A stretch of DNA of 42,253 nt from an uncultured Candidatus Saccharibacteria bacterium. Its GTDB lineage: Bacteria > Patescibacteriota > JACPGU01. This document shows, piece by piece, positions 22,437 to 41,543 of the stretch. Under the pieces are notes generated by a model. The model had not been told where the DNA came from. It ran no database searches and worked only from the letters and a program-made list of their open reading frames with translations. The first letter of the stretch is position 1; every line of letters starts with the position of its first letter. The stretch spans positions 1 to 42,253 of the forward strand of contig CAYHEQ010000004.1 of NCBI GenBank assembly GCA_964355795.1. Direction: 5' to 3'. A program made the position numbers and the translations under genes.

Positions 22437-22633
22437 GCGCCCATAGCTCAGTTGGTTAGAGCGCCACTCTTACCCGCCCGCCTGGACTTCGTTTGTGCGC
22501 CTATAGCTCAGTTGGTTAGAGCGCCACTCTTATAAGGTGGATGTCGCTGGTTCAAGTCCAGCTAGGCGCATTCGTCAAGGCGAAGTCGGGCGCGGTAAGG
22601 TGGAAGTCCCTGGTTTCAGCCCCAAGCTGACCT
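22437..22633 (+). pseudogene. disrupted outer tRNA-Ile-like copy split in its anticodon by a 123-nt insert
   Basis: 22437-22472 matches the first 36 nt of the intact tRNA with 1 mismatch. 22596-22633 is a degenerate copy of its 3' half that cannot form a T arm or acceptor stem. Confidence 0.6.
22497..22570 (+). tRNA. tRNA-Ile (anticodon TAT)
   Basis: Manual cloverleaf: acceptor gcgccta/taggcgc, D arm gctc-agttggtta-gagc, anticodon arm ccact-cTTATAa-ggtgg, T arm gctgg-ttcaagt-ccagc. No encoded CCA. Confidence 0.85.
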
Positions 22634-22641
22634 ACCGTAGC

Positions 22642-22730
22642 GCAATCTATTTGGCGAAGAGGAATAATCACCCCCGTCTGCAATGCTTTGCATAGCAATG
22701 CGGGCAGGTATTTCGCCAAGAGATTAAGCG
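22642..22730 (+). repeat. 89-nt structured repeat, copy A
   Basis: Shares a 58-nt core (1 difference) with 23418-23506. The closing helix is ttggcgaa/ttcgccaa. Confidence 0.7.
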
Positions 22731-22797
22731 CAGGGCAGGCAAGTCCATCCACGCGCATTTCGTAAGTGGTAAGCCAAGCCTTTTGTAAAATAAAAAT

Positions 22798-23202
22798 ATG
22801 ATAAAAGATATTATCAGACTTTTTGAAAAACAGAGTAAATTCTCAAAGACCATGATGGCCTTGATTGTCGTGGGAACATTGATGCTGTATTCATCTCTGA
22901 ATATTGTTTATAGGAATTACCAAATCAATAGACAAATAAAGGGTCTGGAGCAAGAAATCGCTTATTTACAAGAAAATAACATTGAACAAAGGAACAGAAT
23001 CCTGTATTATAGTACGGACGCCTTCGCTGAAAAGATTTTGCGACAAAAACTCAATCATCAGAAGGAGGGCGAGAGGGTCTACGCCTTGGCGCGCAAAGAT
23101 CCTGAAAGAGAGAAGTTAGTCAGAGAGCAACAGAAGTATCAAGAAAGGGAGGAGAAAAAAGCGAATATTTTGAAATGGTGGGATTTCTTCTTTAAGCACT
23201 AA
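22798..23202 (+). CDS. FtsB/DivIC-like septum formation initiator
   Basis: Single TM helix (MMALIVVGTLMLYSSL), a coiled coil (QINRQIKGLEQEIAYLQENNIEQRNRI), then DAFAEKILRQKLNHQKEGERVY. Confidence 0.6.
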   Translation: MIKDIIRLFEKQSKFSKTMMALIVVGTLMLYSSLNIVYRNYQINRQIKGLEQEIAYLQENNIEQRNRILYYSTDAFAEKILRQKLNHQKEGERVYALARKDPEREKLVREQQKYQEREEKKANILKWWDFFFKH

Positions 23203-23290
23203 TTGCGCGAATATTTGACTAATTGCGCGAATGAATGATCTCCGAAATGATTAGTGAAATTCGTTAAAAATTCGCGTAATTAGTGTATGT

Positions 23291-23362
23291 CGCGGGGTAG
23301 AGCAGTGGTAGCTCGCAAGGCTCATAACCTTGAGGTCGTGGGTTCAATTCCCACCCCCGCAA
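23291..23362 (+). tRNA. tRNA-Met (CAT), initiator-like
   Basis: Acceptor cgcgggg/ccccgca gives the C1:A72 mismatch typical of bacterial initiator tRNA. Anticodon arm caagg-ctCATaa-ccttg, T arm gtggg-ttcaatt-cccac. Confidence 0.85.
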
Positions 23363-23417
23363 TTTGAAATGTGTTACAGCAAGGATATAGATAGAAAAAC
23401 ATCTCACCCTCCGAAGA

Positions 23418-23506
23418 GCAATCTATGCCGAGAAGAGGAATAATCACCCCCGCCTGCAATGCTTTGCATAGCAATGCGGGCAGGTATTTCGAGGCGAGAT
23501 TAAGCG
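23418..23506 (+). repeat. 89-nt structured repeat, copy B
   Basis: Same core as copy A. The closing helix is gccgagaa/ttcgaggc, with three compensatory pair changes relative to A. Confidence 0.7.
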
Positions 23507-23535
23507 AAGGAGGGGTGTGGTTTTAGAAATAATTA

Positions 23536-23609
23536 GCCAGGGTAGCTCAGTTGGTTAGAGCGTAGGACTCATAAGCCTAAGGTCGAGAGTTCAATCCTCT
23601 CCCCTGGCA
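23536..23609 (+). tRNA. tRNA-Met (CAT), elongator; lysidine-type Ile2 not excluded
   Basis: Acceptor gccaggg/ccctggc, D arm gctc-agttggtta-gagc, anticodon loop ctCATaa, T arm gagag-ttcaatc-ctctc. Confidence 0.85.
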
Positions 23610-23612
23610 TTT

Positions 23613-23903
23613 ATGTTCTATGTATATATACTGCGAAGCACCAAATGCCAAAATTACTATATTGGCGTAAGTAATGATGTAAAAAGAAGATTAAAAGAGC
23701 ATAATAGTGGAATGTCGAAATCTACTAGTCCTTTCCGACCGTTTCTGCTCAAAAGGGTGGAGAGATACTTAACCATCAATGAGGCATACCGAAGGGAAAG
23801 ATTTTTGAAGTCAAAAAAAAGTAAAAAGATTATAGACCTAGTAGTAAAGAGTAGTCCCGACGTTCTTGCGGAGCAAGAAGTCGGGATCCCGATTTTGCGG
23901 TAG
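23613..23903 (+). CDS. GIY-YIG nuclease family protein
   Basis: FYVYILRS...NYYIGVSNDVKRRLKEHN...ERFLK has the GIY/YIG, R, H and E positions. The ATG starts 3 nt after the tRNA 3' end. Confidence 0.85.
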   Translation: MFYVYILRSTKCQNYYIGVSNDVKRRLKEHNSGMSKSTSPFRPFLLKRVERYLTINEAYRRERFLKSKKSKKIIDLVVKSSPDVLAEQEVGIPILR

Positions 23904-23905
23904 CA

Positions 23906-23979
23906 AACATCGGGACTCAGTTGGTTAGAGCACAGCACTCATAACGCTGAGGTCGTGGGTTCGATCCCCGCCCCTGGTA
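23906..23979 (+). pseudogene. tRNA-Met(CAT)-like copy with a damaged 5' acceptor/D region
   Basis: From the D loop onward it is a good tRNA (agttggtta-gagc, ctCATaa, gtggg-ttcgatc-cccgc, 3' acceptor ccctggt). The 5' 12 nt (aacatcgggactc) pair with it at only 4 of 7 acceptor positions. Confidence 0.45.
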
Positions 23980-23988
23980 TTTAGCATT

Positions 23989-24039: not shown

Positions 24040-24402
24040 TTAAGCGCAATTTTTAGCCAGCCATTCGGAGAGGTCTTTGACGGAGGCGGTAAAAAGATTA
24101 TTTTTGAAAAAATCAAAAGTGGCGGGACTGGAAGCGTCAAATTCTTTTTTATTAATCTTAAGAAAGACAGCCATAGCAGTCAAGGCTGTCGGCAGATTAC
24201 CGGACGCGAAAGGCTTCTTTTTCGCGATAGCGAAAATCAGCGCGCCAGCTTTGTCAAAAAGCGTGGGGAAAACTTCGTTGTTTTTGATGTAGCTGACTGT
24301 TCTTTTCAAAATCTTGGTGTCGCCAATGCCGTCGCGACCTCCTATTTCGGAGGTTACGCGACTATGGATGTATAGTATTTCGGAAGGAGATAAATAATTC
24401 AT
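24040..24402 (-). CDS. Fic/Doc-family toxin-like protein with a degenerate active-site motif
   Basis: Size (120 aa) and pattern (ILYIHSRV...GGRDGI...GALIFAIAKKKPFASGNLPTALTAMAVFL) fit Doc. KPFASGNLPT replaces the HxFx(D/N)(A/G)NKR motif. Confidence 0.65.
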   Translation of the reverse strand: MNYLSPSEILYIHSRVTSEIGGRDGIGDTKILKRTVSYIKNNEVFPTLFDKAGALIFAIAKKKPFASGNLPTALTAMAVFLKINKKEFDASSPATFDFFKNNLFTASVKDLSEWLAKNCA

Positions 24403-24506
24403 TCTGACAATTTTTCTAGGTCTTTCTTGTATTTCTTGATGAATTCTTCAATATGCCGAGCCTTTTCGTCTTCCAGTTGGAAATTGACGAGTGGTTCAAT
24501 ACGAAT
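24399..24506 (-). pseudogene. 3' fragment of an AbrB/MazE-type antitoxin gene, still stop/start coupled to doc
   Basis: Encodes ...EPLVNFQLEDEKARHIEEFIKKYKKDLEKLSE*, a diverged copy of the C-terminal ~35 codons of 24665..24898. Its TGA overlaps the doc ATG (ATGA). Confidence 0.7.
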
Positions 24507-24551
24507 GGCTGGATGATGGTTTGACTTGCAGGAAACCCTTCTTCCTGATCC

Positions 24552-24589
24552 AAGGTTCGACCTTAAAGGATGCCCAAAGGTCGAACCTT
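24552..24589. repeat. 13-bp hairpin with loop AAAGGATGCCCA, copy 2
   Basis: aaggttcgacctt-aaaggatgccca-aaggtcgaacctt. The loop is identical to 20465-20476 and the stem is unrelated. Confidence 0.85.
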
Positions 24590-24664
24590 TTAATTCTTAC
24601 AAATAAGAGAGTAATTAATATACAAATGAAACGATTTGAATTTGTATATTTGTAATGTCTAGAA

Positions 24665-24898
24665 CTACTCTGATAGTTTTTCCAAATCTTTCTTGTATTT
24701 CTTAATAAATTCTTCAATGTGCTGGGCTTTTTCATCTTCCAGCTGGAAATTGACCAGTGGTTCAATAATAATGCGACGATTCTTGCCGTCCACATTGACG
24801 AAAACTTTGTCGCCAATTGCTATCGCCAAATTACCCAAAACTTTTTTGGGGATAGTTACCGCCGCCGAAGAGCCGATTTTGATGATTTTGTTGGCCAC
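24665..24898 (-). CDS. AbrB/MazE/SpoVT-family antitoxin
   Basis: IIKIGSSAAVTIPKKVLGNLAIAIGDKVFVNVDG looped-hinge-helix pattern, 77 aa. Confidence 0.75.
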   Translation of the reverse strand: MANKIIKIGSSAAVTIPKKVLGNLAIAIGDKVFVNVDGKNRRIIIEPLVNFQLEDEKAQHIEEFIKKYKKDLEKLSE

Positions 24899-25128
24899 AA
24901 AAATAGTTTTTAGTTATTAGGGACTAGGGACTAGTTTTCAAATTTTAGACGATAACAAAATTGAGTTTTTACTAAAACCTAGTCCCTAATCACTATCAAC
25001 CATTCTATTATAATATCATTATAACAGTCTGCAAATAGTCTTTTTTCGGACATGGAAAAGCCCCGACATTAAGTCGAGGCTTGTTTCCCTCCCCCGTGTG
25101 CGGAGGGTGAAAATTTCGAAAAGGCACT

Positions 25129-32308: not shown

Positions 32309-33604
32309 TCACAGGTTTTTGCTCGACGCGACCTCAAAATTCATTTTGCTTAATTGCTTAATTGGTTTTTTGGTTAATTGGAACAAAGCGCAGGTCGCGA
32401 CCATTGTCGCGTTGTCGCCACAGTATTTGAGAGGGGGTAGAACGAGATTTGGATGTCCGACATCGAACCCGCTAGATGACGGACATCTCAGCTCACCTAG
32501 AGTAATCGCCATTTTTTCGCGCAAACGTTTGTTGGCGGCGACGCCTCCGGCGATAGAGATGGTCTTGGCTTTGTATTTTTGCGCGGCGCGGATAGTTTTC
32601 GCCACCAAAACATCAGTGGCGGCTTCTTCAAATTCGTAGGCGAACGATCCTTTTCGCGCTTCAGCCGAGGTCGCACCTCCGTCCGCTACGCTCTCCGAGG
32701 AACGACCCCCACTTTCGCGTTGCCAAGCATACAAAACGGCAGTTTTGAGACCGGAAAAGGAAAAATTGAGGTCCTTGCTGTCTAGCATAGGACGAGGGAA
32801 GGTTAGGCCAGTGTTGAGTGTTGAGTGTTGAGTGTTGAGTTTAGGATTTTGAATTTGAGATTTGTTTGTGTTTTGTGAAGTTTGTGTTTTGTGAAGTTTT
32901 TTTCGGTATTCATCCGCATATCGCGAGACGCTCGGTCCTCCGGGGTATCCCAACCCCAAAATCCTCGCCACTTTATCAAAGGCCTCCCCCGCCGCGTCAT
33001 CCAAGGTCTCGCCCAGCGTCTGATATTGACCATGGTCTTTCATTAAAATAAGCGAGGTATGCCCACCAGAGACCAGCAATATGATTGCTGGAAATTCGAA
33101 GGGGGTTGCGTTTAGGTTGAAATTTTGGATTTGTAATTTGTTTGTGTTTTGTGTTTTGTAATTTGTGTTTTCGCGAATTTTATCGGAGATAAAATTCGCG
33201 TAGATGTGTCCCTCCAAATGATTCACCGGTATCAAGGGCTTCCCCCACGCCAGCGCCAATGATTTGGCGGTATTAACGCCTACCAGAAGCGAGCCAATCA
33301 GCCCTGGATAGGCGGTAACGGCGATAGCGTCTATCTGTCGAGGTGTCACCTCGGCATCTTTGAACGCCTTATCAATGACAGAGATGATCTGCTCCACATG
33401 AGCGCGAGAAGCCACTTCTGGCACCACCCCGCCGGTTAAAGCGTGGATATCCACTTGAGAGGCAATAACAGATGACAAAACGTGTGCTCCTTTTTGAAGT
33501 CGCACTTCGTCTGGTGCCGAAGAACGACTTCTTTGAGGAGCGCGCAACTCCACCACCGAAGCGGCCGTCTCATCACAACTTGTTTCAATGCCTAGAATAA
33601 TCAT
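32309..33604 (-). CDS. tsaD: tRNA N6-adenosine threonylcarbamoyltransferase TsaD (insertion-rich)
   Basis: MIILGIETSCDETAASVV, NHLEGHIYANF, VSGGHTSL, GGVAANKRLRE. At 431 aa it is clearly longer than the family norm because of several inserts. Confidence 0.9.
   Translation of the reverse strand: MIILGIETSCDETAASVVELRAPQRSRSSAPDEVRLQKGAHVLSSVIASQVDIHALTGGVVPEVASRAHVEQIISVIDKAFKDAEVTPRQIDAIAVTAYPGLIGSLLVGVNTAKSLALAWGKPLIPVNHLEGHIYANFISDKIRENTNYKTQNTNKLQIQNFNLNATPFEFPAIILLVSGGHTSLILMKDHGQYQTLGETLDDAAGEAFDKVARILGLGYPGGPSVSRYADEYRKKLHKTQTSQNTNKSQIQNPKLNTQHSTLNTGLTFPRPMLDSKDLNFSFSGLKTAVLYAWQRESGGRSSESVADGGATSAEARKGSFAYEFEEAATDVLVAKTIRAAQKYKAKTISIAGGVAANKRLREKMAITLGELRCPSSSGFDVGHPNLVLPPLKYCGDNATMVATCALFQLTKKPIKQLSKMNFEVASSKNL
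32810..32898. repeat. tandem repeats inside tsaD
   Basis: gtgttga x4 (32810-32837) and ttgtgttttgtgaagt x2 (32865-32896), encoding ...KKLHKTQTSQNTNKSQIQNPKLNTQHSTLNT.... Confidence 0.85.
33108..33172. repeat. T/G-rich stuttered repeat inside tsaD
   Basis: gcgtttaggttgaaattttggatttgtaatttgtttgtgttttgtgttttgtaatttgtgtttt encodes ...RENTNYKTQNTNKLQIQNFNLNA.... Confidence 0.8.
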
Positions 33605-41354: not shown

Positions 41355-41505
41355 AGATTATAGCTTTACTGGCTAGAATCTATTATACTAGATTGTGGGT
41401 AATATCAAAATGTCAGGACAGAGTCCCTGCTCGCATGGGATGACGATTACCTATAATACCCGACATACCATCTTTATGCGAAATATCTTCGCATAAAGAC
41501 GAGTT
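41353..41505 (+). repeat. conserved left block, copy 2
   Basis: Aligns to 39142-39279, with a different central hairpin and the perfect hairpin ctttatgcgaa-atatc-ttcgcataaag (41472-41498). Confidence 0.8.
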
Positions 41506-41543
41506 ATCGGATATATTGCTCTTTTAAAACGAATACTTTTGGG
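41503..41543. repeat. cassette-2 left inverted repeat
   Basis: The rc of gttatcggatatattgctcttttaaaacgaatacttttggg matches 41919-41936, 41967-41976 and 41980-41989. Confidence 0.8.

Follow-up and report, generated by a model that had tools for sequence, protein, structure and literature searches.

A palindromic repeat beside tRNA genes in a candidate phyla radiation contig probably belongs to a family of dispersed, nesting DNA elements

The question

What is the structured repeat that occurs twice among the tRNA genes of an uncultured Candidatus Saccharibacteria bacterium? The repeat lies in contig CAYHEQ010000004.1 of assembly GCA_964355795.1, all 42,253 nt of which (positions 1 to 42,253) are referred to here as the window. 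The window derives from a Hainich groundwater 0.1-um metagenome, and its relatives carry the labels Microgenomates, CPR3 or Patescibacteria. A first-pass annotation, made from the letters alone, described an 89-nt structured repeat in two copies (here copies A and B), each just downstream of a tRNA gene, and took it not to be a plain terminator. The repeat is probably better described as a copy of a dispersed family of non-autonomous palindromic elements of the candidate phyla radiation (CPR)/Patescibacteria, spread as DNA, and the hairpin may have an RNA-level role where it is transcribed. A dispersed insertion element is favored because of the comparison of orthologous sites, the nesting of one element in another, and the location of copy A inside a broken tRNA pseudogene.

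Architecture of the two copies

The 58-nt core shared by the copies occurs exactly twice in the window, at 22658-22715 and 23434-23491, with a difference at a single base (Y), just as the first-pass annotation stated; shuffling predicts no matches at all (0 expected, 100 shuffles). The repeat itself extends beyond 89 nt, to 108 nt at 86% identity (22627-22734 and 23403-23510), and the differences between copies A and B are clustered in two pairs of complementary segments. On the + strand each copy is predicted to fold into one long hairpin, the 89-nt versions having energies of -33.6 kcal/mol (copy A, z -4.1) and -32.4 kcal/mol (copy B, z -3.3). The closing helix reads ttggcgaa/ttcgccaa in copy A and gccgagaa/ttcgaggc in copy B, and aatct/agatt is common to both, so the compensatory changes reported earlier are indeed to be read in both copies. 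The claim that Y converts a U.G pair to a C-G pair also stands, since Y pairs with G in the minimum-energy fold of the inner hairpin, in a register slightly off from the one first drawn.

The 58-nt core does not hold up as a single unit. It comprises 15 nt, a nested 36-nt element and a further 7 nt, and is thus a composite in which an abundant palindromic element is lodged in the tip of a larger hairpin. The tip consists of 14+3 nt, GAGGAAUAAUCACC followed by UAU, and in both window copies the 36-nt palindrome splits it between CACC and TAT. Subtraction of the nested piece leaves a hairpin of 77 nt, whose helices are designated P0 (outer), P1b and P1, and P2 (closing) in the following list.

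22629-22741, + strand: copy A, whole hairpin (77-nt family unit plus 36-nt nested element); matches covariance model R1 at 66.3 bits, E 7e-16
22631-22636, + strand: copy A, outer helix P0, 5' strand CCTACC; partner GGCAGG at 22734-22739, with one A.C mismatch; P0 covaries in the family
22640-22648, + strand: copy A, P1b and P1, 5' strand GCGCAATCT; partner AGATTAAGC at 22721-22729; P1 (AAUCU/AGAUU) invariant, its 5' strand fixed by the scan pattern
22651-22658, + strand: copy A, closing helix P2, 5' strand TTGGCGAA; partner TTCGCCAA at 22712-22719
22659-22672, + strand: copy A, apical loop to the left of the nested element, GAGGAATAATCACC; to its right, TAT at 22709-22711; loop uninterrupted as GAGGAATAATCACCTAT in 23 other copies
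22673-22708, + strand: copy A, nested 36-nt GC-clamped palindromic mini-element CCCGTCTGCAATGCTTTGCATAGCAATGCGGGCAGG; delimited by word depth, a paralogue without the 36 nt, and 24 reference-genome loci
23405-23517, + strand: copy B, whole hairpin; matches R1 at 63.0 bits
23405-23412 and 23509-23517, + strand: copy B, P0, CACCCTCC and GGAGGGGTG
23416-23424 and 23497-23505, + strand: copy B, P1b and P1
23427-23434 and 23488-23495, + strand: copy B, P2, GCCGAGAA and TTCGAGGC
23449-23484, + strand: copy B, nested 36-nt mini-element, fifth base C instead of T
22496-22571, + strand: tRNA-Ile(tat), called by ARAGORN and Rfam
23290-23363, + strand: tRNA-Met(cat), called by ARAGORN and Rfam; copy B begins 41 nt downstream
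23536-23609, + strand: tRNA-Met(cat), called by ARAGORN and Rfam; copy B ends 18 nt upstream

The C1/A72 ends of the tRNA-Met at 23290-23363 suggest that it is the initiator.

A family of hairpins with covarying helices

A scan of metagenomes with the pattern AATCTAT-N8-GAGGAATAATCACC returned 34 loci, amounting to 25 distinct copies beyond the two in the window. The tip is uninterrupted (GAGGAATAATCACCTAT) in 23 of these 25; in the other two (L073 and L078) a different 36-nt GC-clamped hairpin occupies the identical site between CACC and TAT. The family unit comprises a GC-rich basal helix P0, a short helix usually with tandem G.A pairs, P1 (AAUCU/AGAUU), an 8-bp P2 and a 17-nt tip, GAGGAAUAAUCACCUAU. 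P1 and the tip do not vary across the aligned copies. Part of that constancy is by construction, because the scan pattern dictated one strand of P1 (5') and the greater part of the tip; it left the 3' strand and the TAT unconstrained.

Conservation of structure was assessed on the 25 copies and the two window copies, aligned with the nested piece removed against a structure of 25 pairs. The modelled structure is 85.9% paired, compared to 40-55% when the partners are slid, and double changes affect 14 of the 25 pairs (74 cells, against 6-16 cells with partners slid); none of 500 shuffles reaches the observed values. Covariation is strong in P0 and P2: P2 occurs in at least eleven complementary forms, and P0 varies likewise. 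The hairpin is thus conserved through covariation, and the closing helix, whose loss from further copies the first-pass annotation had named as evidence against itself, is retained in the 25 additional copies, as is the outer helix P0, by way of double changes. Of the 27 copies, about 20 have tandem G.A pairs and 26 have a U.G pair. Pairs of the G.U type outnumber A.C pairs by 42 to 10, favoring the + strand, which also folds at -33.3 kcal/mol versus -24.6 kcal/mol for the reverse complement. In several copies P0 takes the form of a CCCGCC..GGCGGG-type clamp, like those of the cassettes described below, which suggests that GC-clamped cassettes with differing contents may constitute one superfamily.

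A covariance model, proposed as a check by the first-pass annotation, was built from this alignment (R1) and recovers copies A and B as well as a short homologue in L020 (29.8 bits). The constant tip is missing from a third match in the window (41453-41516, minus strand, 23 bits), which is an unrelated hairpin. Two resemblances to known RNA motifs were also discarded: the tandem G.A pairs do not form a K-turn, as no 3-nt bulge is present on inspection, and the RNase P-like motif upstream, GGAAGUCC, is the 5' strand of P0 in a region that is antisense to a 5' untranslated region. The discrete RNA of ~90 nt envisaged earlier gained no support. An Rfam scan places no family over copy A or copy B, whether the cutoff is the gathering score or E<=10; the uninterrupted copy L070 gives noise only in Rfam 15 (below 17 bits); and there is no RNA-seq coverage of the element, the matches in the RNA runs searched being generic tRNA parts only.

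The nested 36-nt palindrome

The mini-element within the tip is very abundant in the source groundwater metagenomes. Source-run contigs that cover copy A have a depth of ~7 on the flanks and of 280-500 exactly over 22673-22708, a 40-70x excess, and many other contigs match the 36 nt alone, on both strands and within unrelated flanks. The source runs also contain a copy of the hairpin that shares its P2 with copy A but not its flanks, and in which precisely these 36 nt are missing. This copy is a paralogue and not an allele; the apparent joint was therefore rejected as an allelic empty site and is no evidence of current mobility. Nevertheless the hairpin and the mini-element are plainly nested, one in the other.

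The sequence of the 36-mer is almost unchanged among reference genomes, where a scan found 24 loci, ~20 of them in CPR metagenome-assembled genomes (MAGs) of many phyla. It was also found in MAGs labelled Gammaproteobacteria and Bdellovibrionales (L039, L054, L060, L057), which could be mis-binned or mislabelled CPR contigs, or could reflect spread outside the CPR. Seven loci (L038, L041, L044, L048, L051, L057 and L061) carry the 36-mer within a long open reading frame (ORF), and in all seven it has the same orientation and frame, reading PARIA(M)QSIAGG. The hosts, identified by reading, include SMC, RuvB, PriA, a methyltransferase-like protein and membrane proteins, and in the SMC protein PARIAAQSIAGG lies within an insertion of 22 residues, flanked on each side by sequence that aligns continuously to structure 5h66. 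Because the length of the 36-mer is a multiple of three and its one frame is open in every ORF, the reading frames indicate that here it is likely translated rather than removed, and would yield a peptide containing PARIAMQSIAGG. The proteins of L044 and L057 contain further repeated peptide blocks (NVPRGT.., MFHVEH.., CSTWNI..), which look like other in-frame palindromic elements.

Genomic contexts and orthologous sites

The family is dispersed in unrelated contexts. The tRNA adjacency noted earlier is true of both window copies and is not a property of the family, since a tRNA lies nearby in only 3 of the 25 other copies; a tRNA-linked RNA gene was accordingly dropped as a description of the family. 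A phage or viral origin was likewise discarded, as scans of viral contigs with the two halves of the core gave chance matches only. Twelve of the 25 copies are located just upstream of unrelated genes, no more than about 110 nt from the gene start and antisense to it. Read from their N-terminal sequences, these genes include nusA, rpsB, dnaN, trxB and a response-regulator gene, among others, and in these leaders the hairpin is joined to a second, small one in a composite of ~114 nt. By crude ORF calls, 30 of 41 flanking ORFs are on the strand opposite to the hairpin. Copies in stable-RNA contexts are sense in five of seven cases: the two window copies, L083 (after a tRNA), L074 (within a larger insertion in a 23S rRNA gene, after GUAACUAU, at about E. 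coli position 1917 and not at the classical intervening-sequence sites) and L091 (about 150 nt downstream of the 16S 3' end).

Orthologous sites in related genomes lack the element. The leader of rpsB in L072 aligns with those of three orthologues (L097, L098 and L099; 69-72% protein identity) in the promoter, TTGTCA..TATGATAAGAT, and at the start of the coding sequence. The Shine-Dalgarno (SD) stretch of L072, GGAGCGAAAGG, is shared with L097 only, L099 having GGAG and L098 GGAA, and the ~114-nt block of hairpin and second small hairpin is present in L072 alone of the four. The covariance model found no copy at 23 CPR rpsB loci. The syntenic relatives of the window tell a similar story: they preserve the gene order (tRNA-Ile, divIC-like gene, two tRNA-Met genes), and both copies of the repeat are missing, with a 52-nt spacer in L019 at the place of copy B. 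Among the reference genomes no close relative with the nested form was found, and a search for loci related to the neighboring SpoIID protein likewise came up empty.

The same relatives have a conserved long hairpin of ~80 nt in front of each tRNA-Met or tRNA-Ile gene, with 2-4 nt between its end and the 5' end of the gene (L020 2240-2323 and 2035-2116, L024 3830-3908, L027 4460-4543). Its form is AGGAG-stem-GGAAGAAAAATTTC..GAAATTTTTATGGA-stem-ACGA, possibly a leader structure of the tRNAs with a distant relationship to the repeat.

A tRNA inside a tRNA

The tRNA gene that surrounds copy A is disrupted. The intact tRNA-Ile is preceded by a 5' half-copy of itself (36 of 37 positions identical) and followed by 3' remnants, so that the locus 22437-22757 is a tRNA within a tRNA.

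22437-22472, + strand: 5' piece of the decayed outer tRNA-Ile(UAU) pseudogene; its other pieces are at 22596-22615 and 22740-22757
22473-22595, + strand: GC-clamped cassette of 123 nt in the outer anticodon loop, holding the intact tRNA-Ile(UAU) at 22497-22571
22616-22739, + strand: second insertion, in the T-arm region of the outer tRNA, containing copy A; 5' junction approximate

Removal of 22473-22595 and 22616-22739 joins the three pieces into a gene that ARAGORN calls as tRNA-Ile(tat). Five stem positions of the rejoined outer gene are mismatched on inspection, from which it reads as a decayed pseudogene. The junctions are precise and without target duplication: removal in silico restores tRNA-Ile(UAU) in the window and in L030, L036, L037 and L020, and no bases are duplicated in the window or L020. 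The ends of the cassette, CCCGCCCGCCTGGACTTCG and CGAAGTCGGGCGCGG, are found identically in CPR MAGs of several phyla. In L030, L036, L037 and L020 they again hold a tRNA-Ile(UAU) within the anticodon loop of another tRNA-Ile(UAU), and elsewhere in CPR MAGs they enclose AT-rich filler between genes. The most elaborate case is L020 (883-1493), in which four insertions divide the outer tRNA into five pieces that rejoin as a perfect cloverleaf; the T-arm insertion there holds the short homologue of the hairpin. The outer copy is also perfect in L037; it is decayed in the window, truncated in L019 and broken in L027. Judged from these arrangements, the tRNA-in-tRNA cassette looks like a gene-targeting element that would bring its own replacement tRNA.

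At 23536-23983 the tRNA-Met is followed by an ORF for a 96-residue GIY-YIG nuclease (23613-23903), a pair of GC-clamp hairpins (23855-23915) and, at 23912-23975, a tRNA-Met-like copy that is truncated at its 5' end and 82% identical to 23546-23613. This order suggests that a GIY-YIG element may have entered the tRNA-Met gene and supplied a new 3' part.

Proposed spread as DNA and the competing explanations

A mechanism can be proposed that accommodates these observations. The elements would have spread as DNA, probably via a single-stranded fold-back recognized at the constant P1 and tip, by an enzyme presumably encoded elsewhere. They would enter targets that themselves form loops (tRNA loops and the tips of other elements, for example), with no duplication of the target, and would persist where a self-contained hairpin is harmless: in tRNA and rRNA spacers, introns and 5' leaders. 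The compensatory changes would then result from the need for fold-back, possibly helped by repair within the hairpin, and the surviving orientation would be filtered by what the host transcript tolerates.

Several points weigh against spread as DNA. Pfam finds no transposase, RAYT or integrase among 28 window ORFs scanned, none having been sought genome-wide. No allelic presence/absence polymorphism was found in the source runs, and no target-site duplication at the tRNA-Ile insertions or the rpsB site. The near-identity of the 36-mer across phyla could mean function instead of mobility. A constant tip and P1 with covarying helices are typical of a functional RNA or a protein-binding site as well, and the + strand is clearly the better folder, in energy (-33.3 versus -24.6 kcal/mol) as in its tandem G.A and U.G pairs. 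Finally, an orientation that is sense in stable-RNA contexts and antisense to most ORFs implies RNA-level selection on at least some copies.

These points bear on the alternative that the hairpin is a functional, cis-acting RNA module, recruited or spread, which is compatible with a mobile origin and which we regard as possible, if on balance unlikely. For the sense hairpin of tRNA and rRNA operons, a role as a signal for processing or protection is conceivable. In the leader copies the transcribed strand is the reverse complement, which displays the strongly SD-like heptamer AGGUGAU at the apex of a stable hairpin close to the 5' end, and which could be an mRNA stabilizer or a ribosome standby site in organisms with RNase J; an RNase J is encoded in the window. 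In addition to the covariation with constant tip and P1, and the unlike orientation in stable-RNA and mRNA contexts, such a role would fit the 12 of 25 copies that lie as the same ~114-nt composite between promoter and SD, some of them before housekeeping-like genes. By reading, AUCACCU of the tip is a 7-nt match to the 16S 3' end (chance roughly 0.005, a post hoc estimate). On the other side, the element appears in no RNA run searched, close rpsB orthologues manage without it, and the strand transcribed in mRNA leaders folds less well, having C.A and C.U mismatches. Within the window, the 36-nt insertion splits both tips and the tRNA gene around copy A is dead, which speaks against a needed function there.

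Removal at the RNA level has also been considered, in a broader and a narrower form. It would be surprising if the 36-mer, the 77-nt unit and the tRNA-Ile cassette were one loop-targeting superfamily removed from RNA by a cut-and-ligate activity not known in bacteria; if they were, multiply interrupted tRNA-Ile(UAU) genes such as that of L020 would still be functional. In a milder version the superfamily would move as DNA and would include a self-compensating cassette that breaks the anticodon loop of tRNA-Ile(UAU) and delivers the replacement. Still less probable is that the hairpins and GC-clamped cassettes are intervening sequences cut from RNA with ligation of the ends, the interrupted tRNAs being functional; a system of this kind is not known in bacteria. 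The restoration of tRNA-Ile(UAU) by precise removal at five loci and the perfect outer cloverleaf of L020 despite its four insertions would agree with excision, as would the pairing of the ends of each insertion, which would juxtapose the exon ends. It is disfavored because outer tRNAs are decayed (window), truncated (L019) or broken (L027), with an intact replacement tRNA at each locus; because no bulge-helix-bulge is seen on inspection, both junctions facing each other at the base of one helix; and because the 36-mer is frame-locked in ORFs, a sign that it is translated.

A transcription terminator or attenuator, for which the strong hairpin with its GC-rich base and the U-rich stretches after some copies (TGGTTTT after copy B) might speak, is scarcely credible because the 3' flanks of the 27 copies have no consistent U-tract directly 3' of the stem in either orientation, as the first-pass annotation had already held for the window copies (copy A is followed by CAAGTCCATCC), and because copies lie between promoter and gene, as well as within an rRNA gene, where termination would be harmful.

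Comparison with known systems

A look through Rfam and the searchable literature, the latter queried also with the sequences themselves, turned up no description of these elements. The most obvious parallel is with REP and REPIN sequences, repetitive extragenic palindromes mobilized by RAYT (Y1 HUH) transposases. The likeness lies in short, GC-rich, imperfect palindromes (especially the 36-mer) that are present in many copies, form hairpins, are non-coding and are presumed to be moved in trans. The elements of the window differ in that they are found inside ORFs and RNA genes and so are not strictly extragenic, and in that the same sequence recurs across phyla. No GTAG-type tetranucleotide was seen at their ends, nor any RAYT by Pfam among 28 window ORFs scanned.

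The Rickettsia palindromic elements (RPEs) are similar in occurring as in-frame palindromes in conserved protein genes and also in RNA genes, with no encoded enzyme. In-frame insertion is seen for the 36-mer, as in SMC compared with 5h66, and is not seen for the 77-nt unit. Compared by description, RPEs are 100-150 bp long and confined to Rickettsia, whereas the present elements are of 36 and 77 nt, nest in tips and extend across CPR phyla. Correia/NEMIS, BOX, ERIC and other miniature inverted-repeat transposable elements (MITEs) are also small hairpin-forming repeats, often co-transcribed in 5' leaders, where they can affect how an mRNA is processed or how stable it is. In MITEs, terminal inverted repeats match a parent insertion sequence (IS), and there is a target-site duplication; here no duplication was found, and no parent IS is known, none with matching ends having been searched for. 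The hairpin arms of the present elements are inverted repeats by construction. Moreover, it is the tip and inner helix that are constant here, and the basal helix that varies.

Mitochondrial GC clusters and double-hairpin elements of yeasts and Allomyces are GC-rich palindromes, 30-50 nt long and mobile, in compact genomes of high AT content, and lie in spacers, variable regions of rRNA, introns and, in frame, protein genes. They are organellar and unrelated in sequence. Integron attC sites resemble the hairpin in that structure is kept more than sequence, stems covary and one strand folds better; they differ in that the hairpin has no R and L boxes, cassette array or integron integrase, and is conserved at the tip instead of the base. 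The elements thus work like REP/REPIN, RPEs, Correia-type MITEs and mitochondrial GC clusters, yet fail testable defining features of each, because they are not extragenic, show no target duplication and have no known parent IS or RAYT.

Introns and intervening sequences complete the comparison. Archaeal-type tRNA introns are marked by a bulge-helix-bulge, in which two 3-nt bulges separated by a 4-bp helix carry the splice sites; inspection of the junctions in the window, L020, L030, L036 and L037 shows no such arrangement. The intervening sequences of rRNA that RNase III cleaves are hairpins at the tip of an rRNA helix (23S helices 25 and 45) and are cut out of the rRNA. The one related statement found in the literature concerns many short, unclassified insertions in CPR rRNA genes, including at the classical 23S intervening-sequence sites (PMC11270868).

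Other features of the window

Two other regions seem to have rearrangements or insertions of their own. A Fic/Doc gene (24040-24402, minus strand) adjoins a gene read as a MazE/AbrB-type antitoxin (region 24040-24900), and the 3' 105 nt of the antitoxin gene are duplicated (24403-24507 and 24669-24773, 85%). The relatives have the MazE-Fic pair on the opposite strand, upstream of tRNA-Ile, so in the window the module has been inverted and moved. A TsaD homologue of 431 residues (32309-33604) is matched by its Pfam model in two stretches, as if it contained an internal insertion like those in other CPR proteins.

Significance

The genomes of CPR/Patescibacteria are small and are thought to be streamlined; this locus is nonetheless layered with tiny palindromic elements that nest in one another, split a tRNA gene, and occupy rRNA operons and the leaders of housekeeping-like genes. 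One of them, the 36-mer, gives conserved proteins of several phyla an added, fixed peptide of 12 residues. Such elements have practical consequences: they can mislead the prediction of genes, tRNAs and non-coding RNAs, the 77-nt element scoring as a covarying 'structured RNA', they inflate apparent insertions in proteins, and the 36-mer breaks assemblies. The tRNA-in-tRNA cassette beside the repeat may be a more remarkable object than the repeat itself. For the biology of these bacteria, the family raises the questions of which enzyme mobilizes it, why its tip is constant, and whether the leader copies have been co-opted for mRNA stability or translation.

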